Shown: positions 1,061 through 32,000, numbered from the stretch's first letter. The stretch: DNA of 32,000 nucleotides from Telmatocola sphagniphila (GCF_018398935.1 NZ_CP074694.1:2070001-2102000), one strand, 5' to 3'. Notes: generated by a model not told the origin, from the letters alone. Made by a program: numbers and translations.

Positions 1061-1270
1061 GGGGAGCTTTTCACTTTTCAGCGAAAAATGGTCGAAGAAC
1101 GAGTTAACGGAACCGTATTTTTTCTCTCCCCCAAGTTAGCCGGTTTTCCCAGTGGTTTTTTCAGATTTTCGCACTTTATTCAATTCTCCATTTCGAAAAC
1201 TGAAATTCAGGTACCAGGCAAGAACCGTCGGTTTCGTTTCGCACCCTTCAAGTTTTTTGCGGAAACTCTC
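1061..1270 (+). repeat. Copy A of a diverged ~215-bp noncoding direct repeat (partner at 27139-27356)
   Basis: The core at 1061-1108 matches 27139-27185 in 42 of 48 hand-aligned columns with one 1-nt indel. Collinear anchors follow: TTCGAAAA at offsets 131 vs 130, and (G/A)CGGAAACTCTC at 1259 vs 27345. Confidence 0.7.
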
Positions 1271-1379
1271 AAAGCCTCTTTTTTACGCTGCAATCCAGTT
1301 AACGCGTGCATGTTACTCCCTTGAAGACCCCTTCAGCTTTTCTGTTTGGCTACTGTCCAAAAAAAACGTTACAATTTCT

Positions 1380-6220: not shown

Positions 6221-6675
6221 GTGAAGCCGAACTGTCGAAGACGATGGGTCTGGAAGACGCCTACCGGTTGCTGAACGAAGAGGTCATGCGTCTGGTGTTG
6301 GCGGAGCAACTGTTCGAATTCGTGACCGCCTCGCCCGTGCAACAACCCAATGGCGAGATGAAATCGATTGGTGGCACGAATAACGAAGCGGAGCGGACGT
6401 TGCGTTTTCCCGCGGAGGCTCGAAAAACGGGTCGCACGAATAAGACTCTAATCGGAGCTCGGCGGCAAACGGTGCTCAAGAGCGTTCTGGAATCGCTGCG
6501 GTTGTATCTGTCGAAGTACACTTTGCAGAAGACGATTGAAGAGATTAACCGGTGGGCAAAAGTGGGGCAAAGTTGTTTCGCCCAGCTTTTAGAGAAGTTG
6601 AAGATTCCCAAAGCGGAAAGCCCGCTACTCGATCGACTCTTTCCTAAAGAACCGCAGCCACTAGGAATCGTTTAA
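6208..6675 (+). pseudogene. DDE transposase C-terminal fragment (IS66-like TNN.AER.LR motif)
   Basis: GGTNNEAERTLRFPAEARKTGRTNKTLIGARRQTVLKSVLESLR fits the 'TNN.AER.LR....RK......S..GA......S' pattern of IS66-type transposase C-termini. No N-terminal or catalytic part is present, and the fragment starts at the solo IS end. Confidence 0.45.
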
Positions 6676-6904
6676 AAGACAATCAGACGAGATTCGACTT
6701 TCCGACAGAAATTGATCGGACCGCCCCCACGCGCCCATACTTTGGACGGCTACTTTCTTTAGCGTGTCGAGAGGTTCGGATCCACTACGAATAGTAACGG
6801 GGAATTTGGCCACTCGCCGTTAGCCGGCCGTTGCTGGACAACCTTCACCCTCGTAGGATTATTGCATTTCCAAGACCCACGCCGGACTTTCGGCCCCACC
6901 GGTA

Positions 6905-8482: not shown

Positions 8483-9735
8483 ACTCGAAATTCCCTCAAC
8501 AAAAACTCGCCTCGATTGCGAAGGTCTATTCGGGATTTGCCTTCCATAGCCGCGACATGCAACCCGGCGGGGATATTCCGATTCTGAAAATCTCCAACAT
8601 CCAGGACAAGCGGGTGACCCAAGATTGCAGCAGCGGTTTACCCGCCGCGGCGAATTCCCGCCGATTCGATAAATTCCGCTTGCGGGCCGGGGATGTTCTG
8701 GTCGCGATGACGGGAGAACGAAGCGTCGGAAAATTAGGACGGATGCGGAAGATCGATCGTGAGTATCTGGTCAATCAACGCGTGGCCATTATCCGACCGC
8801 TTCCGGATCAAGGCGATCCCGATTACCTGTTTCATGTTTTGACGATGGAGAAGTATGAAAAAACCTTATCCAGTTATGGACTGGGAGCGGGACAACCGAA
8901 CATCAATCCGGTCCAAATCGCCTCACTCATGCTGCCGCTTCCTCCGCTGGGGATTCAACGCAAGATCGGCTCGATTCTCACGGGCTTCGAGGATCTGATC
9001 GAGAATAATAACGAGCGCATCCGGATTTTGGAATCGCTGGCCCAATCGATTTACCGTAAGTGGTTTGTGGATTTTCGCTTCCCTCGCCGTGGGAAACTTA
9101 CTTGGGTGGAATCGCCACTGGGGAAGATTCCTAAAGGCTGGAGAGTTGGCACTCTGGGAGAGTTGATCCAATTTCAAACCGGTTCATCGATCAAACCCGA
9201 TCCCAAAGGAGCGTATGCTCTCTACGGATCGAACGGCCTTATCGGAAAGAGCTCGGGCTTTCAATTCGAACGGGGAATGATCATCGGCCGGGTCGGGAAT
9301 TATTGCGGTTCGGTTCAGTACTCCCATTCCGCCTTCTGCGCTTCGGGAAATACCGTTATTGCGCTACCTCTGGAAGGAAAAGACGAGCTAATTCCTTACC
9401 TCTATTACACTTTAAAGCACCTTTCGCTCGGCCAATTGGCGAGCGGATCGGCCCAGCCCCAGATTACGCAAAGCGTTTTGAAATCCCAACCGGTCTTGAT
9501 CCCTCCGGTATCTTTTCTGAAAAAATTCTGTTCAGTAACATTCGAATTGCTGCGTCAAATTGATCACCTGAAGAAAGAAAACGAGAACCTTCACAAAACC
9601 CGCGAACTGCTCTTGCCGGAACTGATCTCCGGCCGACTCGACCTGGAAAGAGTTGAGAGGAAAGCCAGCTCAACAAGGAGTCGAGAATATCCCCAGCACA
9701 AGAACCCTCGCTTCGATTTAAATAGTCTGATTTGA
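8479..9735 (+). CDS. hsdS: Type I restriction-modification system, specificity subunit S (two target-recognition domains)
   Basis: The central conserved region LPLPPLGIQRKIGSILTGFEDLIENNNERIRILESLAQSIYRKWFVDFRFP and the distal one (VLIPPVSFLKKF...LKKENENLHKTRELLLPELISGRL) are typical HsdS helices flanking two variable TRDs. The start ATG at 8479 overlaps the hsdM stop. Confidence 0.85.
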   Translation: MNSKFPQQKLASIAKVYSGFAFHSRDMQPGGDIPILKISNIQDKRVTQDCSSGLPAAANSRRFDKFRLRAGDVLVAMTGERSVGKLGRMRKIDREYLVNQRVAIIRPLPDQGDPDYLFHVLTMEKYEKTLSSYGLGAGQPNINPVQIASLMLPLPPLGIQRKIGSILTGFEDLIENNNERIRILESLAQSIYRKWFVDFRFPRRGKLTWVESPLGKIPKGWRVGTLGELIQFQTGSSIKPDPKGAYALYGSNGLIGKSSGFQFERGMIIGRVGNYCGSVQYSHSAFCASGNTVIALPLEGKDELIPYLYYTLKHLSLGQLASGSAQPQITQSVLKSQPVLIPPVSFLKKFCSVTFELLRQIDHLKKENENLHKTRELLLPELISGRLDLERVERKASSTRSREYPQHKNPRFDLNSLI

Positions 9736-9966: not shown

Positions 9967-11184
9967 ATGGGGATTTCTATGAGATTTGTTCGTGGGCTTG
10001 TTTTTTCTCACCTTTCGCTTGTCATCGTAGAAATTGCGTCTTTGGGCTGTCAGGAACGGCCTAAACCAAATGGAATTTCACTGACAAAGGTTATGGTAAG
10101 TTATCCCGTCGAACGGGAGGTCACCGATTACACAGATTTCACAGGTGTGCTATCGGCAGTCGATTCCGTCGAAGTTCGAGCCCGAGTGTATGGCTTTCTG
10201 GACAAAGTGAATTTCAAAGAAGGCGCTCTCGTTAAAAAAGGGGATGTGCTTTATGAAATCGATCCCCGAACTTACCAGGCCGCCGTCAATCAAGCCAAAG
10301 CCAAGGTAGTTACGGATGAAGCTCAGGAACGCTATGCCCGGGCTGATTACGAACGCTACCAAACGCTCGGAAAAACGGGGGCGGTGAGCAAAGAAGATTT
10401 AGAGAAAGCGTTGTCCACACGCGATATCGCGATTTCGACGGTCATTGCGGATAAAGCCGATCTGGCTTCCAAGCAACTCGATCTCGATTTTACCAAGGTC
10501 ATCGCTCCGATCGATGGGAGAATTGGTCGCATCCTCGTCACGGTTGGAAATTTAGTTCAATCCGGCCAGACCGGAGGAACGCTACTGACGACTATCGTTT
10601 CGGTCGATCCTGTCTATTGCAACTTTGATATCGATGAACATACTCTACTACGTGTTCAGCAATTGATTCGAGAAGGAAAGGTGAAATCGGCTCGCAATTC
10701 GGAGCGTCCAGTGATGCTCGGATTGTCGAATGAAAAAGGCTTCCCTCATAGTGGAGTCATCAACTTCGTTGACAATCAACTCAATTCCAAGACCGGCACT
10801 TTACGGCTGCGCGGCGTTTTCTCGAATCCCGATAATAGCCTCTTGCCCGGTTTGTTCGCCCGAATCCGCGTCCCGATCGGCGAACCGCATAAAGCGATTC
10901 TGGTTTCGGATCAAGCGATTGATACGGATCAGGGTCAGAAAATTCTTTACTTGATCGATGATAAAGATACCGTATTCACGCGATCGGTTACTCCGGGTGC
11001 TGTGCATCAAGGAATGCGAGTTATCGAAAATGGAGCTATCAAAGCCGGAGAACGGATCATCGTCGCTGGGCTCCAGCAGGTTAAGGTGGATACGGTCGTA
11101 GAACCCAAACTTATTCCCATGCCAGTGGCCGGCTCGGCGTTTAGTGATGTCGATCCTTCCAAATTAGTAAATCCGAAGAAGTAG
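9967..11184 (+). CDS. RND efflux periplasmic adaptor (membrane fusion protein, AcrA/HlyD-like), probable lipoprotein
   Basis: The N-terminal signal peptide has a lipobox-like SLGC. It carries a lipoyl/hairpin/beta-barrel signature (VRARVYGFLDKVNFKEGALVKKGDVLYEIDP; IAPIDGRIGR; FARIRVP). It sits 8 nt upstream of an RND permease gene. Confidence 0.9.
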   Translation: MGISMRFVRGLVFSHLSLVIVEIASLGCQERPKPNGISLTKVMVSYPVEREVTDYTDFTGVLSAVDSVEVRARVYGFLDKVNFKEGALVKKGDVLYEIDPRTYQAAVNQAKAKVVTDEAQERYARADYERYQTLGKTGAVSKEDLEKALSTRDIAISTVIADKADLASKQLDLDFTKVIAPIDGRIGRILVTVGNLVQSGQTGGTLLTTIVSVDPVYCNFDIDEHTLLRVQQLIREGKVKSARNSERPVMLGLSNEKGFPHSGVINFVDNQLNSKTGTLRLRGVFSNPDNSLLPGLFARIRVPIGEPHKAILVSDQAIDTDQGQKILYLIDDKDTVFTRSVTPGAVHQGMRVIENGAIKAGERIIVAGLQQVKVDTVVEPKLIPMPVAGSAFSDVDPSKLVNPKK

Positions 11185-11192
11185 TAGTCCTT

Positions 11193-14100
11193 ATGCTGGC
11201 ACGTTTTTTTATCGATCGACCGATTCTCGCGTGGGTCATCTCGATCATCATTGTGCTTATCGGCCTGATCGCTTATAAATTTCTTCCCATCGCCCAGTAC
11301 CCTCAGATCACGCCGCCGGTAGTTCGCGTATCGGCGAGTTATCCCGGAGCGAGTTCCGCCGTGGTGGCGGACACGGTGGCCGCCCCGATTGAGCAGCAAG
11401 TCAATGGCGTGGAAGGCATGTTGTACATGTCCTCCCAAAGTAGTAATGACGGCTCTTATAGTCTCGATGTGACCTTTGAACTGGGAACCGATCTCAACCT
11501 CGCTCAGGTCCTAGTCCAAAATCGCGTTGCCATCGCTCAACCCCAATTGCCCGATGTGATCAAAGCCACGGGAGTGACCGTCAAAAAACGCTCCCCCGAT
11601 ATTTTGCTGGTGGTCAATCTCTATTCCGAAGATGACCCCGCGACAGGTCAACCTTATTTTGACCGGCTGTACATGAGCAACTTTGCCACGATTCAACTCC
11701 TGGATCCCATCGCCCGCCTCGAAGGAGTCGGCGATGTCTTCTCTTTCGGAGGACAGGATTACAGCATGCGGGTCTGGCTCGATCCCGATAAGCTGGCGGC
11801 GCACGGTATTTCGGCAGGCGAGGTCGCCGCCGTGATGCAAGAACAAAACGTACAGGTAGCCGCCGGTCAGATTGGCCAGCCTCCAGTGCCAGCGGGTCAG
11901 GAATACCAGTATACCGTCAGCACTTTAGGACGCTTGATTGATGTCGAGCAGTTTGGCAGCATCGTCCTGAAGACCGGGACCAATGGGGAAGTCCTCTATC
12001 TCCGGGATGTGGGGCGTTTGGAGCTGGGAGCAAAAAGCCAAGATCAGACTCTGGCTCTGGATGGCCGCCCTTCCGTTGGACTGGCGATCTTTCAATTACC
12101 CGGATCCAATGCCCTGGATACCGCCGACGGCATCAAAGCGAAGATGCGCCAGTTCGAACGGGACCAGCGTCTCCCAAAAGGCTTGAAATACGACATCGTT
12201 TACGATACTACCCCGTTCATTCGAGAATCGGTCGATGAAGTCATTAAAACCCTGATTATTGCGGTCGTTCTCGTCGCCTTCGTCGTTCTGATTTTTTTGC
12301 AGGATTGGAAATCCCTGCTGCTACCCTTAATCGATATTTGCGTGTCGCTCGTCGGCACATTTGCCGTATTGAAACTGATGGGATTTAGCCTGAACAATCT
12401 GACTTTATTCGGTTTAGTGTTGGCCATTGGAATCGTAGTGGATGACGCCATCGTAGTTCTGGAAAATATCGAACGATGGCTGGACAAGGGACTTCCCGTT
12501 CGGGAAGCCACCATCAAAGCAATGAGCGAAATTACCGGGCCTATCATGGCAATCACTTTGGTACTGTCTTCGGTTTTTATACCCAGTGCCTTTTTGGGAG
12601 GGATCACGGGACAATTCTTTCGACAGTTCGCTTTGACCATATCGGCCGCCATGCTCATCTCGGCCATTAACGCGATGACGATGACCCCCGCTCGCGCCGC
12701 TTCGATTTTTTCAGGTCGTAAGCCGGGCCAAAAAGGAGACCAGGGGAAAGAAGCCCTCCCCTGGTGGGGATTTGGCCTGGCGGGAGGATTGATTTCGGTC
12801 TGGTTACTGAAACAATTGGTGGGCAGTTGGCTGGGACTGATTCCCCACTCGGCCGGAGGGAATGATGCCGTTCAAACCGGATTTATAACATCTATCAAAC
12901 ACTATCTCGTACTTACGGCCTTATTTATGCCCGGCTTGATTGCGGGCGGGATATTGGGTTGGTTCATTATTCGCCCGGTCAACTGGGCGCTCGGCCAATT
13001 TTTTCATGCATTTAATTGGGTATTTGAACGAATTACTCAAATCTATGGCAAAACGGTTTCCAGGCTTTTGCGATGGAGTTTCATTGCCCTTCTCCTGTAT
13101 CTTTTACTTTTGGTCATCACGGGATATGGAATGACCCGAATCCCGGGAGGGTTCATTCCGTCCCAGGACAAAGGGCGATTAATCGTCAATATCACCCTGC
13201 CGGATTCTGCCTCTTTGGAACGCACCGAAGCGATCACTCGACAGATAGAAAAAATCGCTCTCGAAACCCCGGGGGTGGCGCATACTCTGGGAAATCCGGG
13301 GCGCTCTTTCGTCTTAAATGCCATCGGTTCGAATCTGGGTTCGATGTTTGTGACGCTGAAACCGTTCGATGAGAGACTCGCCCCGAATTTGTATGCCGAT
13401 CGGATTGCGGCGCAACTGCGGGCTCGGTTCAAGAACGAAATTCCCGGGGCCGTTATCAACGTTTTTGGCGCGCCCGCCGTGGATGGTCTGGGGAATGCGG
13501 GGGGCTTCAAAGTGATGATCGAAGCCATTGGCGATGTCAACTTCGATCGCTTGCAGGGCCAGGCAGACAATTTAGTGAATAAAGGAAATCAGATACCGGG
13601 CTTAATCGGTATGTTTAATGGGTTTCGCGCGGCGACCCCGCAATTGTTTGCCGATGTCAATCGCGTGCAATGTAAAACCATGGGCGTCAGTCTAACCGAT
13701 GTGTTCGCAACCCTTCAAATTTATCTGGGGGGTTATTATGTCAATGACTTCAATCGATTTGGTCGCACTTGGCAGGTGAATATTCAAGCCGATGCCGCAT
13801 TTCGGAAGGATGTCGAATCGGCGAAGCAATTGAAAGTCCGAAATGCGAACGGGGATATGGTGCCACTCGGCTCCGTGGTCGACTTCCGTGAAATCGGCGG
13901 TCCCTTGACGGTTACCCGTTACAACCTCTTTACTGCCGCGACCGTGGGTGGAGCCTCTTTGCCCGGGATGAGTACCGGTGAGGTCCTTTCGACGATCGAG
14001 CAACTGGCGGTCCAAGAGTTGCCGCACGGCATGACTTACGAATGGACGGAACTGAATTTCCTTCAAAAGCAGTCCAGCCGACTCGAATCTTTCAAAGATC

Positions 14101-14654
14101 TGCAACAAAATCCCTATAGCGCCTTTGTTTTGGGCGCCATCCTGGTGTTCTTTGTCCTCTCCGGCCTGTATGAGAGCTGGTCCTTACCCCTGGCTGTGAT
14201 TTTGGTGGTACCCCTCTGTCTTTCCAGCGCCTTGGCCGGGGTAATCCTTGCTCACATGGACTTGAATATTTTCGTTCAGGTCGGCTTTGTGGTACTCGTG
14301 GGTCTAGCCGCCAAAAATGCCATCCTGGTCGTTGAATTTGCCAGAGATCGCGAAATAGAAGGTGCCAAACCATTCGATGCGGCCGTGGAGGCGGCGACAG
14401 TTCGATTGCGACCGATCATTATGACCTCTTTTGCCTTTATCCTCGGGATGGCCCCCCTCGTGGTCGCAGAAGGCGCGGGTTCGGAGATGCGAAGAACCTT
14501 GGGAATAGCTGTGTTTTCGGGAATGCTGGGCGTTACTCTCTTCGGCATTTTTTTGACTCCGATTTTTTATTATCGCATTCGGTCGCTCAGTGGCCCACTT
14601 GCGAGTCCCACCACAGTGCCTACTGAACAATCTTTACCGGCTGCATCTCCGTAA
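11193..14654 (+). CDS. RND efflux permease (AcrB/HAE1-like), 1153 aa, with an enlarged central loop
   Basis: MLARFFIDRPILAWVISIIIVLIGL is a typical AcrB N-terminus. GIVVDDAIVVLENIERW is the TM4 proton-relay region. The C-terminal half has the matching repeat (LAAKNAILVVEFARD, RLRPIIMTSFAFILGMAPL). Confidence 0.95.
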   Translation: MLARFFIDRPILAWVISIIIVLIGLIAYKFLPIAQYPQITPPVVRVSASYPGASSAVVADTVAAPIEQQVNGVEGMLYMSSQSSNDGSYSLDVTFELGTDLNLAQVLVQNRVAIAQPQLPDVIKATGVTVKKRSPDILLVVNLYSEDDPATGQPYFDRLYMSNFATIQLLDPIARLEGVGDVFSFGGQDYSMRVWLDPDKLAAHGISAGEVAAVMQEQNVQVAAGQIGQPPVPAGQEYQYTVSTLGRLIDVEQFGSIVLKTGTNGEVLYLRDVGRLELGAKSQDQTLALDGRPSVGLAIFQLPGSNALDTADGIKAKMRQFERDQRLPKGLKYDIVYDTTPFIRESVDEVIKTLIIAVVLVAFVVLIFLQDWKSLLLPLIDICVSLVGTFAVLKLMGFSLNNLTLFGLVLAIGIVVDDAIVVLENIERWLDKGLPVREATIKAMSEITGPIMAITLVLSSVFIPSAFLGGITGQFFRQFALTISAAMLISAINAMTMTPARAASIFSGRKPGQKGDQGKEALPWWGFGLAGGLISVWLLKQLVGSWLGLIPHSAGGNDAVQTGFITSIKHYLVLTALFMPGLIAGGILGWFIIRPVNWALGQFFHAFNWVFERITQIYGKTVSRLLRWSFIALLLYLLLLVITGYGMTRIPGGFIPSQDKGRLIVNITLPDSASLERTEAITRQIEKIALETPGVAHTLGNPGRSFVLNAIGSNLGSMFVTLKPFDERLAPNLYADRIAAQLRARFKNEIPGAVINVFGAPAVDGLGNAGGFKVMIEAIGDVNFDRLQGQADNLVNKGNQIPGLIGMFNGFRAATPQLFADVNRVQCKTMGVSLTDVFATLQIYLGGYYVNDFNRFGRTWQVNIQADAAFRKDVESAKQLKVRNANGDMVPLGSVVDFREIGGPLTVTRYNLFTAATVGGASLPGMSTGEVLSTIEQLAVQELPHGMTYEWTELNFLQKQSSRLESFKDLQQNPYSAFVLGAILVFFVLSGLYESWSLPLAVILVVPLCLSSALAGVILAHMDLNIFVQVGFVVLVGLAAKNAILVVEFARDREIEGAKPFDAAVEAATVRLRPIIMTSFAFILGMAPLVVAEGAGSEMRRTLGIAVFSGMLGVTLFGIFLTPIFYYRIRSLSGPLASPTTVPTEQSLPAASP

Positions 14655-15090: not shown

Positions 15091-16681
15091 ATGACTATGC
15101 AGGACCTCTTTCCTCAAGAGGCCGGTTTGGTCGTTACCGATTTCGCTCTCACTCCGGATCTTTTGGTCCTTGCTCTAAAAACCACATACCCGAGTTTGCA
15201 GTACACCTACTGTGGCCAGCTGACATATCGGATTCACAGCCATTATCAGCGTGTATTGGCGGACTTACCCTGGCAAGCTCGACGAGTACTGCTCAGGATC
15301 GAACTGCGAAAATTTCGATGCATGAATGCCGCTTGCCCCAGGCAAATCTTCTGTGAACGGCTACCTCATGTATTTGCTTCCCATGCTCGAATAACGGATC
15401 GGTTAAAAGCTCTCCAGAAACAGATCGGTTTGGCATTAGGTGGCAGGCTGGGTACTCGACTCACGGGAAGTTATTCGTCCCGACCCCCTTTTACGTCGAG
15501 CCAAAGACAAAGTCGACTCCTTAGCCACTCCCCGTGTTCTCGGAGTGGACGATTTTGCATTCCGAAGAGGCCAAAACTACGGCACCATCTTGGTCGATTT
15601 AGAAAAGCATCGCGTTCTAGACTTACTGCCGGATCGGGAGGCTAAAACCCTGGCGTGTTGGTTGAAGGCCCATCCTCAAGTGGAAATTGTCAGCCGAGAT
15701 CGAGCCACGGCTTACGCCCAAGGCATTCGTGAGGCCTGTCCTCAGTCGATTCAGGTGACGGATCGTTGGCATCTTCTGAAAAATCTGCGGGAAGCCATCG
15801 AACGCTGGTTCGATGGAAAGCGGGAAAAGATTCGGGAGTTGATCCAAAAAAGTCACTGCGAAAAACCATCAATCAATAAGGAACTTACCAATCAGGTAGA
15901 CGCAGGGCTCTCCGATCGGCAGAAATTCCGAATGGAGCAATATAAGCAAGTACGTCGCTGGCATGAGGAAGGTCTATCGAAACGGCAAATTCACAAACGA
16001 ACAGGTCTCCATTTCCGAACGATCGACCGCTACTTGCGGCGAGAGGATTGTTCGAATTGGCTTCCCGGACGAAGAGGTTCCTCTCGTTTGGATGTTCACG
16101 AAGGCTTTATTAAGGAGCAATTGCAACAGCCCAAACAAACGGCCCAAAAAATCCACCAAGCTTTGAGAACAAAAGACTGTTCAATCGGTTATTCGGTCGT
16201 CAAAGCCTGTGTTCGACGTTTGAAAACCGAACTGGGGCTGCCCCTTTCCCGTCCCTCAAAGCCTTTCATACCCAATCGAGTTCCTTTGCCTTCTTCACGA
16301 AGTCTAGCCCTGAACTTGTTGCAAAAATCGGAAACTCGATCCGAGGAAGGAACGCGGATTCTTGAGATTTTGCTCAGTGCCGGAAGCGAGTTTCAGGGAC
16401 CTATCGATTTGACTTTAGCCTTTGCAACGCTGTTAAAAGGAAAGCAGGAATCGGCATTTTCGGAGTGGCTTCAGAAAGTGGAAGCCTCCTCGGTTCTCGA
16501 ATTGAAGCGGTTTGCTCAAGGCTTGCGAAACGACGAAGCCGCTGTTCGGGCCGCCGTAACTCTTCCCTGGAGCAATGGCCAAGTGGAAGGACAAGTTAAT
16601 CGATTGAAATCGATCAAAAGAGCGATGTTCGGTCGAGCCAAGTTCGATTTGCTGAAAGCGAGAGTGATTTGCAACGGGTAA
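15091..16681 (+). pseudogene. ISL3-family transposase, split by a frameshift near 15440-15480
   Basis: The frame-1 ORF (15091-15645) carries the N-terminal zinc-finger part (CGQLTYRIHSHYQRVLADLPWQARRVLLRIELRKFRCMNAACPRQIFCERLP...LALGGRLGTRL). The frame-2 ORF (15440-16681) continues with family motifs VLGVDDFAFRRGQNYGTILVDLE, SRDRATAYAQG, QVTDRWHLLKNL and the C-terminal WSNGQVEGQVNRLKSIKRAMFGRAKFDLLKARV. Confidence 0.8.
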
Positions 16682-18922: not shown

Positions 18923-19528
18923 TCAAGAAATAATTGCAACATTTGAATGTTGCCAGAGCTCCTTTTTCTGAACCATTGCATTGATGATTATTAGTAATTT
19001 GTGAGCGACAGCCACCAGCGCGACTTTTGCGGTTTTGCCTCTTACACGCAGCCGTTTGTATAGAGCCCTGGCAGTTGGGTTGTATCGTGCAGCACTCAAA
19101 GAAGCCCTATACATCGCATTACGAACCTGCCTACGTCCCCCTACTGTGTGTCGTTGACCGATGGTAGTTCCACTATCGTTTGCAATGGGAGCAAGTCCTA
19201 CCAACTGCGCGATGACTTTCCGATTGACTTGTCCCAGTTCGGGAAGTTGGCCGATCAGGATCCTAGATGTTTGGGGTCCTATCTCGGGAATCGACTGGAT
19301 GATTCGGTCTAATTCCTTCCATTGCGGGTTTTCGGAAATTCGTTGATCGATCTCCTTTTCGATGGCGTTTATTTCCCGATTGATCCAGTTGATATGCTTC
19401 TTAATGCTTGTGATGGCCTGCTTTAGGACTACCGTTGCTAAACGGTTCGATTCCATAGTCTTCATGTTCATTAATTGCTCCCGACGGTCGAGCAAATCAC
19501 GAAAGAGCCTGATTTCTTCGGTTGGCAA
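18923..19528 (-). pseudogene. IS110-family transposase, C-terminal half only
   Basis: IPEIGPQTSRILIGQLPELGQVNRKVIAQLVGLAPIANDSGTTIGQRHTVGGRRQVRNAMYRASLSAARYNPTARALYKRLRVRGKTAKVALVAVAHKLL matches the IS116/IS110/IS902 C-terminal domain. No N-terminal DEDD catalytic domain lies upstream. Confidence 0.8.
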
Positions 19529-25140: not shown

Positions 25141-25389
25141 ATGGAGAAGTTGAAGGTCAAGCGTCGTCGTAAGCGGTATTCTGCCGAGTACAAGAAAGCC
25201 GCCGTAGAGTTGGTGACTGTAACAGGTCAGTCTCCCGCAGAAGCGGCCAAGTCGCTGGGTGTTACCTCGCAGACGATAAAGAGGTGGATCGACGAACTCA
25301 CCAAGCTCGGCGAGAAGGCCTCCCAACGCAAAACTGCGAAGCTGCCTGGGCACAATCACCTGGAAGACCATCGCCGCCTAATGCGATGA
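25141..25389 (+). pseudogene. IS3-family transposase OrfA (HTH) remnant; no OrfB follows
   Basis: KRRRKRYSAEYKKAAVELVTVTGQSPAEAAKSLGVTSQTIKRWIDEL is the IS3/IS911 OrfA HTH pattern. No leucine-zipper/frameshift region or DDE OrfB lies downstream. The 3' end collides with a convergent gene fragment. Confidence 0.65.
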
Positions 25390-25683
25390 ACCGTGCAGGG
25401 AAGCTGATCGTAGTAGCGAAATCCGGTAATCGATCCCCTGATGCTTCATCAGCGCGTCGATCCATCGTACGGGATCGGGGGCACCATTGATTCGGTCTTC
25501 TGGTCGAAGAATCAGATAAAAACCATGACGTGGATTAGCCAAGCGATGCTTCTTGATTAACCGCGTGATCGAGGCCGCAAGCGTTCCGTTTTTCAGGTCG
25601 AGCGCCGACTCCACTTCCTCACGGGAGAAGTTGGCACGACCGTGAATCAACCGGCCCTCAACAAATTGTTCGATCCTCCTCAT
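25378..25683 (-). pseudogene. AbiEi-type (type IV toxin-antitoxin antitoxin / COG5340-like) N-terminal fragment
   Basis: MRRIEQFVEGRLIHGRANFSREEVESAL...ITRLIKKHRLANPRHGFYLIL...PDPVRWIDALMKHQGIDYRISLLRSASLHGSSH fits the wHTH plus 'YY.gLLsAA.lHGa.HQ' pattern of AbiEi antitoxins. The frame stops where the IS3 remnant begins, and no AbiEii toxin gene is present. Confidence 0.5.
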
Positions 25684-25912
25684 TCCCAAATCACATACGA
25701 AAATCGACATTATTACAAGATTTTTGCAGATGAATTGGGAATATCTTGGAATGACAATGCGTTAGCCGACCTGGTCAAAAACCATGTCCAAGGTTTACGC
25801 ATGGCTATTTTATGGGTAAAATGCCGTTCAAGGTGCTTTGAAGTTGTCCAAAAATTGAGATGAGAAACGTTCTCGATAGACAAGAAAAACTGAAATTTGC
25901 AATACGGCGAGT

Positions 25913-25952
25913 GGAATTCCCTCAAAAATCGAGGATCTATCGCATTCAACTC
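25913..25952 (+). repeat. 40-bp leader motif, copy 1 (immediately upstream of the DUF1559 gene)
   Basis: GGAATTCCCTCAAAAATCGAGGATCTATCGCATTCAACTC aligns with 26750-26789 GGAATCACCTAAAAAATCGAAGCTCTTTCGCATTCAAGTC. About 33 of 40 positions are identical by hand alignment. Confidence 0.6.
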
Positions 25953-25964
25953 GAGGTTCATTTT

Positions 25965-26558
25965 ATGCCAAAACGAACAGCCGCATCGATCATTGAGACT
26001 CTGGTGGTACTCGCCATTATCAGCGTTCTAGTGGGCTTCCTATTACCTGCAGTGCAATCGGCTCGCACCAAAGCACTGGAAACCGTTTGCAAAAATAATC
26101 TGCATCAGCTAGGCCTGGCGATCGCGGACTATGCTGAAACACAAACGAAGTTACCTCCTCCGGGAAATAGTCATCTCGTGGGCGGGTGGTCGATCGAGAT
26201 TCTTCCGTATATCGAACAAAAGAATCTATTCGAACGAATTCAGCCCGGGGGCACCATTCTGGCTGCCCCGGATTTTCTTCTCAGGCAACCCCGGATTTTC
26301 AGCTGCCCCGTAAGAATCGCTCATAATTCCACTAATCCGGGCTCAATGGATCCGTCTTGCTATATTTTCGTGCCGGACGCCAAGCGTAAAAAATTCAGCG
26401 TGTTTGATGCTCCGCTTGCGGTGAGTTTGCCCTGGGCGAGTGGACCAGAAATGTCGGAGGGGAGTATTCTTCCGCAGGTGGGTCCCCACAATCGGGGTTA
26501 CTTTCTTACCGCCGGATTCGACGGAGGCGTGGAATTCCGAGGGACGAATGCTCCATGA
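25965..26558 (+). CDS. DUF1559-family protein with prepilin-type N-terminal helix (197 aa)
   Basis: MPKRTAASIIETLVVLAIISVLVGFLLPAVQSARTKALETVCKNNLHQLGLAIADY is the characteristic planctomycete DUF1559 N-terminus (pseudopilin-like helix plus LLPAVQ.AR....C.NNL.Q.GLA). The ORF-track start at 25860 is probably too far upstream. Confidence 0.85.
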   Translation: MPKRTAASIIETLVVLAIISVLVGFLLPAVQSARTKALETVCKNNLHQLGLAIADYAETQTKLPPPGNSHLVGGWSIEILPYIEQKNLFERIQPGGTILAAPDFLLRQPRIFSCPVRIAHNSTNPGSMDPSCYIFVPDAKRKKFSVFDAPLAVSLPWASGPEMSEGSILPQVGPHNRGYFLTAGFDGGVEFRGTNAP

Positions 26559-26749
26559 ATACGCAACAAAATTACGGTTTAGGAAAGCTAGGAATGCAGC
26601 AAACCGTCCTGGTTAAAAAACCATGTCCAACTGTTATACGTGGATTTTTATATGTAAAGTCCTGCCCAAGATCGATCGGCGTAGTCCCCAAATTGGAATT
26701 CGAATCCCAGTCGACTGATACGATGATTGGATTTTGTAATTCGGCGCTT

Positions 26750-26789
26750 GGAATCACCTAAAAAATCGAAGCTCTTTCGCATTCAAGTC
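26750..26789 (+). repeat. 40-bp leader motif, copy 2 (orphan, with no gene behind it)
   Basis: See 25913-25952. It has the same orientation and lies 837 bp downstream. Confidence 0.6.
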
Positions 26790-27138
26790 ACTCGGCTATA
26801 GCTTTTCAAAAGCTCGCGGAGGCGTTCCTTGCAATTGATCTTTGACAAATCGATCTTGGAATGATCCTCAATTAGCATCTTTACGTTCCATTCTGTTTAC
26901 CCGACTGTACCCCAGTTTTCCCACCCGGAAAATCTGCCAATCCGGTTAACACTTGGGAGATATTTTGCAGTTCGAACAGTGTCACTCTCGCATGCCGCAA
27001 TGGACTCGAACTGGAGTGCCCTATCCCGCTTCGATTCTCAAATATGGTCTTAAAAGTACAGCAAAAAAAAGGCTTACATTCTGCTAGCCAAAATTACTCT
27101 CGCCGACTAGAGAATTTATCCCGAAGAGTGTCACGTTT

Positions 27139-27356
27139 GGGGAGCTTTCACTTTTCAGCGAAATAACGACCAAGAACGAGTTAACAGGTTGGTGAATCGT
27201 CGCTAGTCCCAATTTCGTTAGTTTTCCTAGAGTAGTTTGAGTTTTCCGCATCTTGTTCGCTTCTCTGGTTCGAAAATAGGAATTCGTGAACCACACTAGA
27301 ACTACCAGAACCCCCGATTCCGCTTCGCAACCTACATTTTATTTACGGAAACTCTC
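27139..27356 (+). repeat. Copy B of the diverged ~215-bp noncoding direct repeat (partner at 1061-1270)
   Basis: See copy A. The core is GGGGAGCTTTCACTTTTCAGCGAAATAACGACCAAGAACGAGTTAAC, with collinear anchors running to ACGGAAACTCTC at 27345-27356. Confidence 0.7.
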
Positions 27357-27398
27357 TTTCTCTCTAGGTACTCCTACCAAAGAGTGAACAAGGAGCAA

Positions 27399-27551
27399 AT
27401 GCTTATACGGCTATCGTTAGCGGCTGTATTGTACGTATTTTCTATTACTTTTCATCTGATTATTCTGAGTTACCATGATCGCCTGCCTCAGCAATGCACA
27501 TTGCTATGGTCGGTATTACGCCGCAGACAATGGTTGGTAAATTCGCGTTGA
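27399..27551 (+). CDS. Possible small hydrophobic protein (50 aa); weakly supported
   Basis: AAGGAG ends 3-4 nt before the ATG at 27399. My own translation is MLIRLSLAAVLYVFSITFHLIILSYHDRLPQQCTLLWSVLRRRQWLVNSR, with TGA at 27549-27551. There is no other support, and the SD spacing is short. Confidence 0.2.
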   Translation: MLIRLSLAAVLYVFSITFHLIILSYHDRLPQQCTLLWSVLRRRQWLVNSR

Positions 27552-28007
27552 AAGTGGCTACGTGATTTCTTTGAAGACATTTTGCTAGACCCGATACACC
27601 AAATCCGGTAAAGTTGACTCGAACTTAATGGACAGTCGCAGAGTTATCTTCATGAAGCGGGATCCTGGCTTCGAAATTTGTGATTAAAAATAACTTGCAG
27701 TCTAGAGCAAATTTCAGAATCTGTGGATGCTCTTAATGGGGGGCTCTGATGGATTGTGACCACCCTACATCAATCGGGAGAATAGATCGCAAGGAATTGG
27801 ATTACTGAGATAGGGAATTGAGTACTTCCAAGAGCACGAGATTACCATTCTGAAACAAAGTAAACATACCATGCCCCATTGATGTCCTCAAGATAGTGTC
27901 GTTTCTTGAGTGCCCGTACAAAATTGAAATCGGTCGACTATACATCTTTGATGTTCAAAATAACGAGAGAGCATTTAACCAACAACAATCTGGTGGAGGT
28001 GACTCGC

Positions 28008-29264
28008 ATGGCACGGATTCACAATAAGACTGTTGGCGATAATTGGGAAGTCTACACGGAATCATTCTTGAACGAAGTTGAAGATAAGACCCGCCTAACT
28101 TGGGATCGACAATTTTATGAAGAAGTCAACAACAACATACGATACTTAGATTTGGACATCAGTGATCAAACCGGGGAGAGGTTTGCAGTAGTGGAAGTTA
28201 AGTCGGGTTCGATCGAAGATCCCACACAGATCCAAGATCATATCCAGCTAGCCATCGATTCTACTTCTCAGATCTATGTACTTGTTACCCCTGATGGTAC
28301 ATGTTCCAACTTTGCTAACGATCAAGCCGTGATGCAAGAACTGCAATCCACTGATGTGCGACAGCTCATCGAGAACGGGACAGTTGTGTTTGACAATCCG
28401 TCTGGACAAGTCACAGTCGTCGTTGAGTCTCCAGAGAATTTGCCAGCACTTTTCGAAGGCCTATGTGATGGAAAAACTGCGGAAGAAGTGACTCGCGATA
28501 TTCGCGAACGAGAAAAATTATGCGAAGCTACCGAAAAAACCGAAGGCGAAGCTGCCGAAAAGGCTGAACGCGAAGCCGCCGAAAAAACCGAACGCGAAGC
28601 TGCCGAAAAAACCGAACGCGAAGCTGCCGAAAAAACCGAACGCGAAGCTGCCGAAAAAACCGAACGCGAAGCTGCCGAAAAGGCCGAACGCGAAGCTGCC
28701 GAAAAGGCCGAACGCGAAGCTGCCGAAAAAGCTGAACGCGAAGCTGCCGAAAAAGCTGAACGCGAAGCTGCCGAAAAAGCTGAACGCGAAGCTGCCGAAA
28801 AAACCGAACGCGAAGCTGCCGAAAAAACCGAACGCGAAGCTGCCGAAAAAACCGAACGCGAAGCTGCCGAAAAGGCCGAACGCGAAGCTGCCGAAAAAGC
28901 TGAACGCGAAGCTGCCGAAAAAGCTGAACGCGAAGCTGCCGAAAAAGCTGAACGCGAAGCTGCCGAAAAAGCTGAACGCGAAGCTGCCGAAAAAACCGAA
29001 CGCGAAGCTGCCGAAAAAGCTGAACGCGAAGCTGCCGAAAAAGCTGAACGCGAAGCTGCCGAAAAAGCTGAACACGAAGCTGCCGAAAAAGCTGAACGCG
29101 ATCAGACCGCGAGTGAGGAAGGTAGGGATCTAGGGGTTGATTTTAATCTTGAAGAACCTGCTAAAGAATCGATAGGCAGCGAAATGCATGAGGGTGGAAT
29201 TACTGAAACAGGATTTGGTTCTGATTTTCATGGCTGGTTCGGACATGAAGGAGATCATTGGTGA
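28008..29264 (+). CDS. PD-(D/E)xK nuclease-fold protein fused to a 192-aa tandem EREAAEK(A/T) repeat and an acidic/aromatic C-terminal tail
   Basis: GGAGG (27995-27999) lies 8 nt before the ATG at 28008. Alternative upstream starts are ATG 27951 and TTG 27906. The N-domain has E (WEVYTESF), D (IRYLDLDISD) and E-x-K (FAVVEVKSG), followed by Q..IQLAI, in the spacing typical of restriction-endonuclease-like folds. Next come 24 in-frame octads, then the tail ...GFGSDFHGWFGHEGDHW. Confidence 0.8.
   Translation: MARIHNKTVGDNWEVYTESFLNEVEDKTRLTWDRQFYEEVNNNIRYLDLDISDQTGERFAVVEVKSGSIEDPTQIQDHIQLAIDSTSQIYVLVTPDGTCSNFANDQAVMQELQSTDVRQLIENGTVVFDNPSGQVTVVVESPENLPALFEGLCDGKTAEEVTRDIREREKLCEATEKTEGEAAEKAEREAAEKTEREAAEKTEREAAEKTEREAAEKTEREAAEKAEREAAEKAEREAAEKAEREAAEKAEREAAEKAEREAAEKTEREAAEKTEREAAEKTEREAAEKAEREAAEKAEREAAEKAEREAAEKAEREAAEKAEREAAEKTEREAAEKAEREAAEKAEREAAEKAEHEAAEKAERDQTASEEGRDLGVDFNLEEPAKESIGSEMHEGGITETGFGSDFHGWFGHEGDHW
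28530..29100 (+). repeat. Tandem repeat, 24-bp unit x ~24 copies, in frame within the CDS
   Basis: The unit GAACGCGAAGCTGCCGAAAA(A/G)(ACC/GCC/GCT) repeats head to tail with no spacers. The only other substitutions are GGC (unit 1), GCC for GCT (unit 2) and CAC for CGC (unit 23/24). Confidence 0.95.
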
Positions 29265-29455
29265 GAATTTTATGAACTATCATGCATTAACTTCGACGCA
29301 TTCATAGAATCCTTGTAATCTTGGATAATTCGCAAAGTCGTGTGATCATGCCAGGCCGTATCTAAAAACGTACCGACAAATTACTGTAAATGTTTTATGG
29401 AAGAATAAAGAACATTTTTCTTAGTTATTATTAGTGATAACATTGAGGAATTCGC

Positions 29456-30493
29456 ATGGATAGTGTTAGTGAAAGTATTGCCATTTATAAATACATAGGT
29501 GATTATTTGAGTCTAGATAAAGAAAAGCAATTGCTATTTCTCAATCACATGACTGACGTCCGAAAGAAGGGTGGTCGCATCTACGGCCCGTCTTATACCA
29601 GCATTCTTCAGCTCAACACCACTGATCCCCGTGAATCTCTTGACATCATCGGAACTGCATTACTCAATCTAAAAGGAGGTGCATCATCAGAGTCGTACTG
29701 GCAAATCAAACGTAAACTCCATTCCGATCCGGTTAAACCAGGCAACTTCCGCTTTATGGCGTCGTGTCGCTACCTTTGGTTTCCTCACGGAGGATCGCTA
29801 GAAATGTCCTTCGGACGCCAAGATTTAATTGTGTCCGCAAGCCAGAATGAAAACGGTACTTCCACATCGTGTGAACTAACAAACCAGGACGAATGGGGAT
29901 TTACATTTGAGGTGAGTCGAATGGTGGCAGAACAATGTTGGAGATTGCTGCTTCCAGAAATAGTTCAAAGTGGAGCTCTGTCAGAGGTCGTGACTGTTCC
30001 GACATGGCCTCAAAAATTTGAACAATATCGAGTTCCGTATCTTTCAGCGCTTCCCGATTCTACAATGGGGCACCAGCACTTCGCCAAACAAGAATACTCT
30101 GAAGCTATTGCCTCTTACGATAAAGCCATTGCGATCAACCCTTATGACCCAATAAATTTCGGACACCGCGCTCAATGTCATTTCATAAAGGGACAATTAG
30201 ATCTCGCCTATATTGATGCTAGCATGTCAATGCAACTTAATCCGACTGATCCATTCAATTACTGGATGAGGAGTCAATGCTTAAGAAATAGCGGTAAACC
30301 CGATCTTGCAGTGGAAGATGCGGCAAAAGCAGTTCTGCTAGATCCCGCTAATCCCAATATGTTCATCGGGCGGGGCACCATCTTTCAAGATTTAGGAAAA
30401 ACAGAGGAAGCCAGAGCTGACTATAGGAAAGCACTTCAACTTGATCCCAGTTCGACTACAGCAACTACTTTGCTGATGAAACTTAACACGTGA
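29456..30493 (+). CDS. TPR-repeat protein with an unrecognised ~205-aa N-terminal domain (345 aa)
   Basis: GAGGA lies 6 nt before the ATG at 29456. The C-terminal third holds about four TPR units (HQHFAKQEYSEAIASYDKAIAINPYDP; ...MSMQLNPTDP; ...AAKAVLLDPANP; ...YRKALQLDPSS). The stop TGA at 30491-30493 is 2 nt before the next ATG. Confidence 0.85.
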   Translation: MDSVSESIAIYKYIGDYLSLDKEKQLLFLNHMTDVRKKGGRIYGPSYTSILQLNTTDPRESLDIIGTALLNLKGGASSESYWQIKRKLHSDPVKPGNFRFMASCRYLWFPHGGSLEMSFGRQDLIVSASQNENGTSTSCELTNQDEWGFTFEVSRMVAEQCWRLLLPEIVQSGALSEVVTVPTWPQKFEQYRVPYLSALPDSTMGHQHFAKQEYSEAIASYDKAIAINPYDPINFGHRAQCHFIKGQLDLAYIDASMSMQLNPTDPFNYWMRSQCLRNSGKPDLAVEDAAKAVLLDPANPNMFIGRGTIFQDLGKTEEARADYRKALQLDPSSTTATTLLMKLNT

Positions 30494-30495
30494 AC

Positions 30496-32000
30496 ATGGC
30501 AGAACGGAATAAAATCGTGGACACATCACCTAGTTCAAGCGTACGACCGATCCTTCTCGCAGTCTCGGAACAAATTCTCGAAGGAAAGATTACAGATGTT
30601 CTCAGTGCCTGCCGATTTGAAGGTATAAAAGTCCTCCGAGATTCGCGTTTTGCGACCGCTTACCGCAAATCGAAACGTGGAAACTCTGTTATTGGGTCCT
30701 GGGAAAAAGAATCCAGACTTGAACTCAACTGGGAACCCCAGTCGGACTTGGTCAAACTAAATGTTGTGGCGTATGACGCTGCTATTGGAAATCCCAAAAT
30801 TCTCGATACTGCAACTTGCAAGGAAATAACCGAAGCATTTCTGCGACTGGTTCAGCCTTCAATTTCACCAAGTTCAGAGGTTGTCCTGATGCCGGGGGAA
30901 AGCTCTCTTGGCCCGTCACGAGGTCCGATCAGAGATTATTCTCGTTGCGCACGAGAGGAAGAATTGAGTGATCTTTTCCACGGCGACCTACCTTTAGGAC
31001 GATACGCCTTTGGAAGAACACCACAAGCTTTGCGTCACGGCAAGCCACTTTTCCTTTCTCGTTTTCCGCACACAAACCAGCCGATGATATATAATGGCGT
31101 CCTTCTTTGCGCTCCACAAAATTCTGGCAAGACTGAACTATTGCTGACATGGGCAGCGGCTGCAAATCGTGCCGGATACTCTATTTTCATGATTGATGTG
31201 AAAGGCAATTTGAGATCCAAGCTGGATAGGTTTAAGAATACATGGCGAGGTGAATTATTCCACTTTTCCGTACGCCCTGGAATTGACTCAGCTCGACTCA
31301 ATTTTCTAGCTCCACTCGCATACGGCCAACCTTTAGACTCAAAAAGACTGGAAAGTCTTGCTGGAGCAATATTACCTGCTGAAGGATGGGACGGTGAAGG
31401 TGGTGAGGCGGAAATGTTCTATCAGAGCCGATTATTGCGACTAACGGCTTTTCTACATATACTCAAGTTCCGACACGATTACTGCTATAAGTACATAGCG
31501 AAACGAAATCCAAACGGAAGACCGGGCGATTATTACATACTTTCCGAGGGCACTGCTCCGGCCATCCCTAGTTTGTCAGAATTATATAATTTCGCGACCG
31601 ATGAAGAACTTGTTTGCTTCTGGATTAAGCGCATAGCGGAAGCAGAGAAATCTCTTGAAAGTCTGGGAAGAGGGAAGCTGCTACCAGAAAAAAGGGTTGA
31701 AATGTGGGCTCGCGATATTGCGCCAATCCTTCATCCTGATTACTTACCAGGTATAGGACAACGCCGGGATCCGAAAGTCGGTTATAGAGATCTGACTTAT
31801 GGCGTGGCACTTGCACTCCACCCATTTTCGGAAGGCGTATTATTGGAGAGAACTTCACCTTCTGGATCCGGTAAATTGTTTGATTTTCAAACGTTAAATC
31901 GCAGCAAAAATGAACATCCAGTAAGCTTATTGCTGGAAGTCGGGGAGGATGATCCGAAACAAGCCGCGGCTATAACTTCACTCACTGTACGCGCTCTGGA
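30496..32000 (+). CDS. VirD4/TraG-type (type IV coupling protein-like) P-loop ATPase with no N-terminal TM helices; 3' end outside the window
   Basis: My own translation is open from the ATG at 30496 to base 32000 (about 501 codons, no stop). That is why it is missing from the ORF track. GVLLCAPQNSGKTELLLTW (Walker A, nt 31111-31134), SIFMIDVKGNL and LFHFS......ARLNFLAPL mirror the VirD4/TraG pattern 'LLcAPTRSGKG....P.LLtW ... DiKGE ... FdP....s..yNPL'. The first ~190 aa are hydrophilic and unrecognised. Confidence 0.8.
   Translation, partial: MAERNKIVDTSPSSSVRPILLAVSEQILEGKITDVLSACRFEGIKVLRDSRFATAYRKSKRGNSVIGSWEKESRLELNWEPQSDLVKLNVVAYDAAIGNPKILDTATCKEITEAFLRLVQPSISPSSEVVLMPGESSLGPSRGPIRDYSRCAREEELSDLFHGDLPLGRYAFGRTPQALRHGKPLFLSRFPHTNQPMIYNGVLLCAPQNSGKTELLLTWAAAANRAGYSIFMIDVKGNLRSKLDRFKNTWRGELFHFSVRPGIDSARLNFLAPLAYGQPLDSKRLESLAGAILPAEGWDGEGGEAEMFYQSRLLRLTAFLHILKFRHDYCYKYIAKRNPNGRPGDYYILSEGTAPAIPSLSELYNFATDEELVCFWIKRIAEAEKSLESLGRGKLLPEKRVEMWARDIAPILHPDYLPGIGQRRDPKVGYRDLTYGVALALHPFSEGVLLERTSPSGSGKLFDFQTLNRSKNEHPVSLLLEVGEDDPKQAAAITSLTVRAL

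Follow-up and report, generated by a model that had tools for sequence, protein, structure and literature searches.

A soluble coupling-protein-like ATPase at the centre of a candidate immunity or conflict module in Telmatocola sphagniphila

A coupling protein is read as a sign of conjugation or type IV secretion, and CONJscan and oriTfinder score it accordingly. What, then, is an ATPase of this kind doing in a locus where it has neither a membrane anchor nor conjugation partners? We analysed a 32-kb window of the planctomycete Telmatocola sphagniphila, which has a 6.59-Mb genome (GCF_018398935.1, NZ_CP074694.1:2070001-2102000); "the window" denotes this whole stretch, and all positions are window coordinates unless a related locus is named. 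Three plus-strand open reading frames (ORFs) fill 27906-32000 and correspond to the consecutive annotated genes QVL33912.1, QVL33913.1 and QVL33914.1, which NCBI names hypothetical protein, tetratricopeptide repeat protein and TraM recognition domain-containing protein, and which we call A, B and C. An initial annotation, made from the DNA alone, had proposed the three genes as a candidate undescribed system for defence or DNA handling. Our analysis favours, with a probability of roughly 45%, the reading that A-B-C would be an immunity or conflict module not described before, with a repurposed soluble coupling protein as its basis; the module would have been acquired horizontally and be organised around a type IV coupling protein (T4CP) devoid of membrane anchor and conjugation partners.

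Gene C encodes a predicted soluble ATPase of the VirD4/TraG family, as judged from Pfam matches, motifs and a second assembly. The window contains the first 501 of its 669 codons (30496-32000, plus strand), and a public short-read contig (L001; related loci and proteins carry L and P numbers below), identical to the window over the 2957-bp overlap, supplies the full-length protein of 669 aa, which ends at about position 32505, ~505 bp past the window end. Two Pfam families match C above their cut-offs, TraG-D_C (6.7e-10, 39.4 bits for a cut-off of 22) and T4SS-DNA_transf (24.7 bits for a cut-off of 20.1), with scores just above threshold, unlike those of real VirD4 and TraG proteins. A search of 5.8 billion clustered proteins found only 15 relatives, and across the family TraG-D_C is matched by 15/15 members, T4SS-DNA_transf by 11/15 and TrwB_AAD_bind by 5/15 (best 7e-7; E 0.03 for C itself). 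The alignment is invariant at Walker A (CAPxxSGKT), at DVKG, which is the counterpart of the T4CP motif DPKGE, at Walker B (LLDExxRIR) and at the Q of VYQS, and a family-specific block in front of Walker A is also invariant (PG...DYSxxA...LPLG; in fuller form PGE...RDYSxCA...LPLGRY). In C these elements lie at 30931-30951 (RDYSRCA), 30988-31005 (LPLGRY), 31108-31134 (Walker A, CAPQNSGKT) and 31195-31209 (DVKGN), all on the plus strand, with Walker B (LLLLLDETRRIR) and VYQS following beyond the window at ~32068-32175. In total, 58 columns are invariant across the 15 members, whose identity goes down to 26%, which implies selection on the ATPase.

Compared with the known T4CPs TrwB, VirD4, TraG, TraD and DotL, C thus shares a homologous nucleotide-binding domain, including Walker A (APxxSGKT), the DPKGE-like DVKGN, Walker B and the QS motif; the ~290 residues between its Walker motifs may correspond to the all-alpha insertion of these proteins. 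C differs from them in lacking the N-terminal transmembrane domain, in place of which it has a variable soluble N-domain of ~125 aa and the family motif, and in having neither a relaxase nor type IV secretion system (T4SS) neighbours among the genes scanned, nor any plasmid match by tblastn; of four T4CP features checked, C therefore fails two, the membrane anchor and the conjugative context. A coupling-protein-type ATPase without its anchor is what the initial annotation had described, and this description held: no transmembrane segment and no signal-like N-terminus was found in A, B or C (maximum 19-residue Kyte-Doolittle mean ~1.2), and in C the highest value (1.21) falls in the ATPase core, while the N-terminus is polar. 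The N-terminal region of the C family appears to vary with the set of partner genes, as seen when query coverage is set against partners: relatives with a ~240-aa protein encoded upstream cover ~80% of C, whereas the other relatives cover 95-98%. With C as the query, tblastn gave no match in 72,556 plasmids, in 50,697 phages or in viral contigs; searches of the PDB by sequence and profile returned spurious RecA and P-loop matches, with DotL only at E 0.32, and a PDB search with the N-domain was uninformative. Judged by its sequence, C is a true but atypical, very divergent and anchor-less member of the T4CP branch.

The initial annotation had held that its idea would fail if a relaxase, VirB4 and mating-pair genes lay just downstream. 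No relaxase, VirB4 or other T4SS domain was found among the genes called or scanned in the 32-kb window, nor in ~13 related loci, whose flanking sequence was included to as much as 10 kb if the contig was long enough; in this survey L005 was read as ORFs only and L019 was partly scanned, and the Telmatocola sequence was seen to 295 bp past C. The C family is very rare and was never seen with conjugation genes in the loci scanned. A continuation of the cassette beyond C had also been envisaged; the 295 bp that follow C in L001 contain no convincing same-strand gene, nor is there a same-strand gene after C in L005 or L013, and within the sequence available C is the last gene of the cassette.

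Gene B (QVL33913.1, 29456-30493, plus strand) encodes 345 aa and has the sequence GAGGA 7 nt before its ATG. Its C-terminal ~140 residues are canonical tetratricopeptide repeats (TPRs) according to Pfam (TPR_1, 1.1e-21; aa 205-343, nt 30068-30484), and these follow an N-domain (aa 1-204) to which no family could be assigned, as had been anticipated. A search for homologues of this N-domain by word index retrieved only a fragment of B itself, and a single-sequence structural model of B had a pLDDT of 38 and was unusable. The stop codon of B (TGA 30491-30493) and the ATG of C (30496) are separated by 2 nt, in agreement with the initial annotation. A good Shine-Dalgarno (SD) sequence had been claimed for each of the three genes; it is present in front of B and of the ATG 28008 of A, but C has no SD sequence of its own, and C appears to be translationally coupled to B.

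The B-C pair is kept in 3/3 loci of the closest subclade. Besides Telmatocola, these are L005, a planctomycete metagenome-assembled genome in which C is 59% identical and a B orthologue lies directly upstream, with both the N-domain and the TPR array recognisable despite frameshifts, and L013 (C 61% identical), whose contig starts within an ORF that ends in ...DLGRPEEARNDYRKALQLDPKN, matching the C-terminus of B, directly upstream of C. In L005 the B and C orthologues (1500-4610) are cut by several frameshifts, which may be long-read assembly errors or pseudogenisation. In a different subclade the position directly upstream of the ATPase is taken by a ~240-aa protein without known domain (L006 9245-10000, L007 8460-9137, L009 5213-5956, L018 7627-8334; 33-40% mutual identity), often accompanied by LIM/DA1-like peptidases; a PDB search with this family was uninformative, and homology with the B N-domain was considered and rejected (hhalign probability 0.04).

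Gene A encodes a head, a long repeat predicted to be helical, and a tail. Its longest ORF starts at TTG 27906 (452 aa, QVL33912.1), where no SD sequence is found, whereas GGAGG lies 8 nt 5′ of ATG 28008. Because of this GGAGG, and because the 67%-identical protein P0018 begins at the equivalent residue, the start of A is most likely ATG 28008, giving a protein of 418 aa (28008-29264, plus strand). The head (aa 1-166 of this form, 28008-28505) had been taken for a PD-(D/E)xK nuclease, that is, for the restriction-endonuclease fold. When 1.84 billion representatives were scanned exhaustively with HMMER, it came up in only four proteins: A, P0018, P0019 (GET41491.1, on a 31-kb contig), which is from the filamentous cyanobacterium Microseira wollei and carries the UniRef name "Mrr domain-containing", and P0020, on a 42-kb contig, the last two ~35% identical to A; a word-index search found no homologue. 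The alignment of the four sequences (30-66% identity) is invariant at G10, E14, E18, D48, D53, E63-x-K65-S-G, Q74 and TPDGT, and the conserved acidic residues together with E63-V-K65, which are of the PD-(D/E)xK type, are kept in these four and in a further homologue encoded in L017. On the DNA the motifs are GDNWE (28035-28049), YLDLDISD (28143-28166), VVEVKSG (28188-28208) and TPDGT (28287-28301), on the plus strand.

The low-confidence AlphaFold model of the head (mean pLDDT 47) has the order helix, four strands, helix, strand, in which the elements follow one another as in the alpha-beta-beta-beta-alpha-beta core of PD-(D/E)xK nucleases. In Foldseek this model gave no significant match (best E 5.9e-3, TM ~0.3), so that only a trend can be read from it, and nearly all the matches were PD-(D/E)xK proteins, namely NucS/EndoMS, VRR-NUC, the R2 endonuclease domain, SfsA, RecU, Hjc, Bax1, LmuA and SduA. 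Weak Pfam and PADLOC matches of the head family members pointed in one direction as well (HSDR_N_2, SfsA, DUF4143, DUF2130, PD_DExK), with no curated family above its cut-off (HSDR_N_2 0.087 for A, SfsA 0.0052 for the L017 homologue, PADLOC PD_DExK 0.0048), and a search of the PDB by sequence and profile returned nothing. Of the nuclease proposal, the conserved E...D...ExK stands, while the order of the fold comes from a low-confidence model and the profile and Foldseek matches all stay below threshold. Hence, a PD-(D/E)xK nuclease fold is probable for the head of A, and nuclease activity is plausible.

The stalk of A (28506-29099, plus strand) consists of 198 aa that are almost only E, A, K and R, with the unit (EREAAEK[AT])n; Tandem Repeats Finder reports a 24-bp period with 24.2 copies and 95% matches at 28522-29101. 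Its composition (E74 A62 K25 R23) is Ala-rich with an excess of negative charge, and opposite charges stand at i/i+4 in 90/194 positions. From the known behaviour of ER/K single alpha-helices, the stalk should be one long helix of ~30 nm. Runs of identical variant units suggest that the 24-bp repeat expanded recently by segments; the short-read assembly publicly available for this strain (L001) is interrupted within the repeat at window position 29044, and the minus strand of the repeat carries a spurious 185-aa ORF, (FGSFAFSF)n, at 28518-29075. The tail (29100-29261, plus strand; 54 aa) is acidic, Gly-rich and aromatic, ends in ...GFGSDFHGWFGHEGDHW, and gave no homologue. As the initial annotation suggested by analogy, this tail could be a ligand of the B TPRs; the canonical Lys/Asn carboxylate-clamp positions are, by eye, not obviously kept between B and its L005 orthologue.

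A recurrent association links the A head to the ATPase. In P0018 the head is joined to a C-terminal Lipase_3 domain, and the gene lies one 45-aa ORF downstream of a 648-aa ATPase in which each of the three T4CP Pfam domains is found. In L017 an A-like head (6350-7261, hidden Markov model E 1.7e-11) follows directly on the stop codon of a C-family ATPase with 40% identity to C. Head members with a known context (the window, P0018 and L017) are therefore within one gene of a T4CP-like ATPase in 3/3 cases and, given how rare the head is, chance cannot reasonably explain the association of A with C. A weaker A-like head (E 0.0076) is found three genes after the ATPase in L002-L004. On its 28-kb contig (JGI 3300047160), where neither a relaxase nor VirB4 was found, the P0018 locus comprises, in this order, a kinase, an FHA-ABC transporter, proteins of 321 aa and 117 aa, a pair of AAA+ ATPases (AAA_2), the 648-aa T4CP-like ATPase, the 45-aa ORF, the fusion of A head and Lipase_3, a protein of 297 aa, a Zeta_toxin protein and DUF1810, and may represent an enlarged form of this system. 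That the three genes should co-occur in other genomes, as had been expected for a true system, thus holds for the pairs (B with C in the close relatives, an A-like head with a T4CP-like ATPase wherever the context is known), but not for the trio.

This picture is extended by the surroundings of another 10 ATPase relatives, which share 26-40% identity with C. Encoded beside the ATPase there is repeatedly a protein whose N-terminal part is a globular head and whose tail is long and of low complexity, for example in L006 (307 aa), L009 (345 aa), L011 (345 aa), L016 (396 aa), L017, L018 (358 aa), L002 (359 aa) and L007 (250 aa). Together with A, these proteins have C-terminal sequence entropies among the lowest of all neighbours, and the lowest values belong mostly to neighbours of the ATPase. 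Most of the family has no TPR partner, hence a contact between tail and TPRs is not needed there. The clearest case comes from L017 and L018, whose DNA is 87-90% identical and whose ATPases are 95% identical: the 640-820 bp that encode the head (L017 6341-6979, L018 10438-11259) are non-homologous, and similarity resumes in the tail, which is P/Q/S-rich, 70% identical as protein and ends in ...SPVSPLGxIKFK. The L017 head is the A-like putative nuclease head, and the L018 head is unrelated to it. A swapped head on a constant handle is the signature of diversifying effectors.

The genes around these relatives are of a kind typical of conflict systems, with signalling and threshold modules named here by the Pfam families of Kaur et al. 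(2020, PMC7159879). They include vWA with PP2C and kinase-TPR (L007, L017, L018, L019), ThiF/E2/JAB (L009, L019), DO-GTPase2/GAP1/HSP70-vWA (L006), nSTAND1-TPR (L019), LIM/DA1-like peptidases and toxin-antitoxin genes. Membrane proteins are also encoded beside the ATPase in L009 (254 aa and 223 aa), L006 (165 aa) and L002 (345 aa).

In the mechanism that we propose, C would form the cytoplasmic hexameric ring typical of T4CPs and act as a motor driven by nucleoside triphosphate (NTP), or as a scaffold. It would engage invading nucleic acid, either by sensing or by translocating it, and would hold, activate or release an interchangeable effector through the extended tail of that effector. In the Telmatocola subclade, B would be the adaptor between the C ring and the putative nuclease A, with the ~30-nm helical stalk setting the reach of the head. 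The outcome would be the cleavage of foreign DNA, or of all DNA in an abortive response, and the whole could work as an immunity or conflict system analogous to the pairs of HerA with an effector.

Several points weigh against this proposal. The nuclease assignment of A consists of motifs, a pLDDT-47 model and sub-threshold matches, the N-domain of B (~200 residues) has no match in Pfam, PADLOC, NCBIfam or the PDB, and no PADLOC system matches the cassette; DNA binding, hexamer formation and the contact between tail and TPRs are all properties that we infer. The gap of 191 nt between A and B leaves room for A to be a separate transcription unit, the exact A-B-C trio was not found elsewhere, and L005, the closest relative with upstream sequence, has an IS-type transposase at the place of A. 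P0018, which combines an A head with Lipase_3 beside a Zeta-toxin gene, fits exported toxins equally well. Finally, the Telmatocola sequence downstream of C covers 295 bp.

The main rival explanation is a machine for export and antagonism, in which C would be the substrate receptor for the C-terminal tails of head-tail toxins and would feed a putative envelope channel for delivery to competitors, with B as a chaperone or adaptor like those of DotL. T4CPs recognise the C-terminal tails of effectors, which is established knowledge, and secretion substrates and polymorphic toxins are likewise built by exchanging heads on an unchanged tail. The P0018 locus, with its Lipase_3 and Zeta_toxin proteins, two AAA+ ATPases and FHA-ABC transporter, would suit such a machine, as would the membrane proteins beside the ATPase in L009, L006 and L002. 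However, no channel, VirB-type or other secretion gene was recognised in any locus, A, B and C have neither a transmembrane segment nor a signal-like N-terminus, and no small immunity-like ORF follows A, the 191-nt gap being empty; the neighbours, moreover, are cytoplasmic signalling and threshold modules typical of intracellular conflict systems. We consider export unlikely on this balance.

Alternatively, B-C alone could be the functional pair, possibly regulatory or housekeeping, and A a bystander brought in with them on one low-GC fragment. In L005 the B-C pair is present and no A can be seen, the exact trio is found in Telmatocola alone among the loci seen, and a promoter-like site (29301-29329) lies within the A-B gap. 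Such sites are, however, below the number expected from shuffled sequences (3 observed, 5.9 expected), and the A head, with four occurrences in 1.84 billion representatives, is nevertheless within one gene of a T4CP-like ATPase in each of its three known contexts, which makes a bystander role for A distinctly improbable.

A decayed integrative conjugative element, with C as an orphan coupling protein and A and B as cargo, is very improbable. C does match Pfam families of conjugation, the region has a low GC content and several insertion sequence (IS) elements nearby, and the view downstream of C ends at 295 bp. Against decay, the ATPase motifs are intact, with the 58 invariant columns in 15 members mentioned above, and both the anchor-less architecture and the non-conjugative neighbourhoods recur in ~13 independent loci; C has no BLAST-level similarity to any of the 72,556 plasmids, and its barely supra-threshold Pfam scores set it apart from real VirD4/TraG. 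That A is a structural or surface repeat protein of the TolA-like or fibrinogen-binding-like kind and no enzyme is hardly credible, since its matches to Fibrinogen_BP (Pfam, 4.3e-6; 25.7 bits for a cut-off of 50) and TolA (NCBIfam, 1.9e-5; 23.8 bits for a cut-off of 213) are far below the curated cut-offs and confined to the E/A/K-rich repeat, hence compositional, while A has no signal peptide or transmembrane segment and its head is conserved with catalytic-type residues.

How does the favoured module compare with known systems? The nearest analogy for how the cassette may work is provided by the anti-phage pairs of HerA with an effector (Sir2-HerA, DUF4297-HerA), in which a ring ATPase of the FtsK/HerA superfamily and a nuclease or other effector form a compact, non-conjugative module. 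C belongs to the T4CP branch and not to the HerA branch, the cassette adds a TPR adaptor and head-stalk-tail effectors, and the PADLOC models for HerA, Sir2 and DUF4297 gave no match to it. The initial annotation had not recognised the domain combination from any named conjugation or defence system, and the PADLOC result agrees with this.

Within the defence library, the ATPase family is recognised by one profile only, mad8 of the MADS system (P0009 8.7e-9 over ~230 profile positions, P0014 3.7e-5, P0004 5.5e-4, C 6e-3). MADS is an anti-phage system in which mad6-8 are mandatory components needed for resistance (bioRxiv 10.1101/2023.03.30.534895). This profile matches C itself only weakly, the other mad profiles match none of A, B and C, and the cassette has no mad6, mad7, methyltransferase or kinase partner; the MADS operon, with 8 genes, has another architecture, and the one methylase in the window, a type I hsdM, lies at a distance of 22 kb.

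A second comparison concerns the NTP-dependent conflict systems of multicellular prokaryotes, which combine a constant NTPase core with highly variable effector modules (Kaur et al. 2020, PMC7159879). The relatives of C adjoin genes of the types found there (DO-GTPase/GAP1-N2, vWA, PP2C/kinase, nSTAND1-TPR), and the hosts of the cassette relatives are planctomycetes, with the filamentous cyanobacterium for P0019. However, a T4CP-like core is absent from that paper, in which "TraG" is not mentioned once and FtsK features only among rare effector domains that are inactive, and the Telmatocola cassette lacks any of the core pairs defined in it. In the Menshen system, an N-terminal T4SS-DNA_transf domain is fused within NsnA, in three proteins, as a presumed nucleic-acid sensor (PMC12065111), which is a precedent for the recruitment of a TrwB-like P-loop domain to an anti-phage protein; there the domain is fused, whereas C is free-standing with partners of its own, and the Menshen profiles gave no PADLOC match to the cassette. 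In a literature search of incomplete coverage, directed at T4CPs that are soluble or orphan and act in defence, at TraG-D_C in defence and at Olokun together with TraG, no description of this family turned up.

If the proposal is true, a conserved anchor-less branch in conflict-type neighbourhoods would represent a T4CP motor recruited for another purpose and a new core ATPase among the NTP-dependent immunity systems. The exchange of heads on a constant tail would then be a natural handle on how a ring ATPase recognises and deploys different effectors, and the repeat stalk of A a simple, testable case of a molecular spacer. For annotation, "TraM recognition domain-containing protein" in a planctomycete genome need not mean a mobile element. 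A wider generalisation, possible although we regard it as doubtful, is that these loci form an unrecognised class of conflict system, in which a T4CP freed from the membrane and from conjugation would act as a cytoplasmic ring that docks interchangeable heads (nuclease, lipase and others) through rod-like or disordered tails, or else as the substrate receptor of a protein-export route in planctomycetes and cyanobacteria. The Telmatocola version of such a class would add the TPR adaptor and the ~30-nm nuclease stalk.

The composition of the locus supports a foreign origin of A-B-C. The GC content of the three genes is 44-47% and their GC at third codon positions (GC3) is 39-43%, below the 50-59% and 50-70%, respectively, of seven other genes of the window. 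The foreign-looking composition and the higher GC of other genes are thus as first described, but the 40-43% quoted for the block was too low, since the tandem repeat within A has 55% GC, and 1-kb windows of the block give 42-50%; other parts of the window drop to 46-48%. The three same-strand genes do stand behind a noncoding region of the stated ~1.3 kb: 26559-27905 (1.35 kb) is free of ORFs longer than 70 aa and gave no match to Rfam families or tRNAs. With the 5′ end of the longest A ORF included, the stretch without a credible gene, to which no strand is assigned, spans 26559-28007 (GC 0.431), and the promoter of the cassette probably sits there, although searches in and around the cassette gave neither an RNA family or tRNA nor promoter or terminator signals above the level of chance. 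By tblastn, no remnants of the partner genes from related loci were found in the window. A DUF1559 protein of the planctomycete-typical, prepilin-like kind with N-terminal methylation (25860-26558) lies directly before the drop in GC, which suggests a left boundary of the low-GC block at about 26.5 kb.

The neighbourhood had been described as a defence island, which fits only in part. The window does hold hsdM/hsdS, a DUF234 ATPase and a kinase-nSTAND1 protein, but RND efflux genes, an ECF sigma factor and kinase genes are also present. The kinase-nSTAND1 protein (1152-5927, 1591 aa) unites Ser/Thr kinase, nSTAND1 NTPase and FGE-sulfatase domains in one giant chain, an architecture of the type discussed for planctomycete conflict systems. 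The type I hsdM (525 aa) and hsdS (488 aa) genes occupy 6905-9735 with ORFs that overlap by ~214 bp, no hsdR was seen in the window, and the RND efflux genes follow directly (HlyD-like, 9967-11184; AcrB-like, 11193-14654). A putative AbiEi scrap on the minus strand (25378-25710) had no Pfam match at E 0.05. In place of the five IS families first proposed, three were identified in the window, with elements or fragments at 15091-16681, 18923-19528 and 25141-25389; they comprise an ISL3 transposase split into overlapping Zn-ribbon and DDE ORFs (likely a frameshift), a fragment of an IS110-family Transposase_20 and an IS3-type HTH_Tnp_1 ORF.

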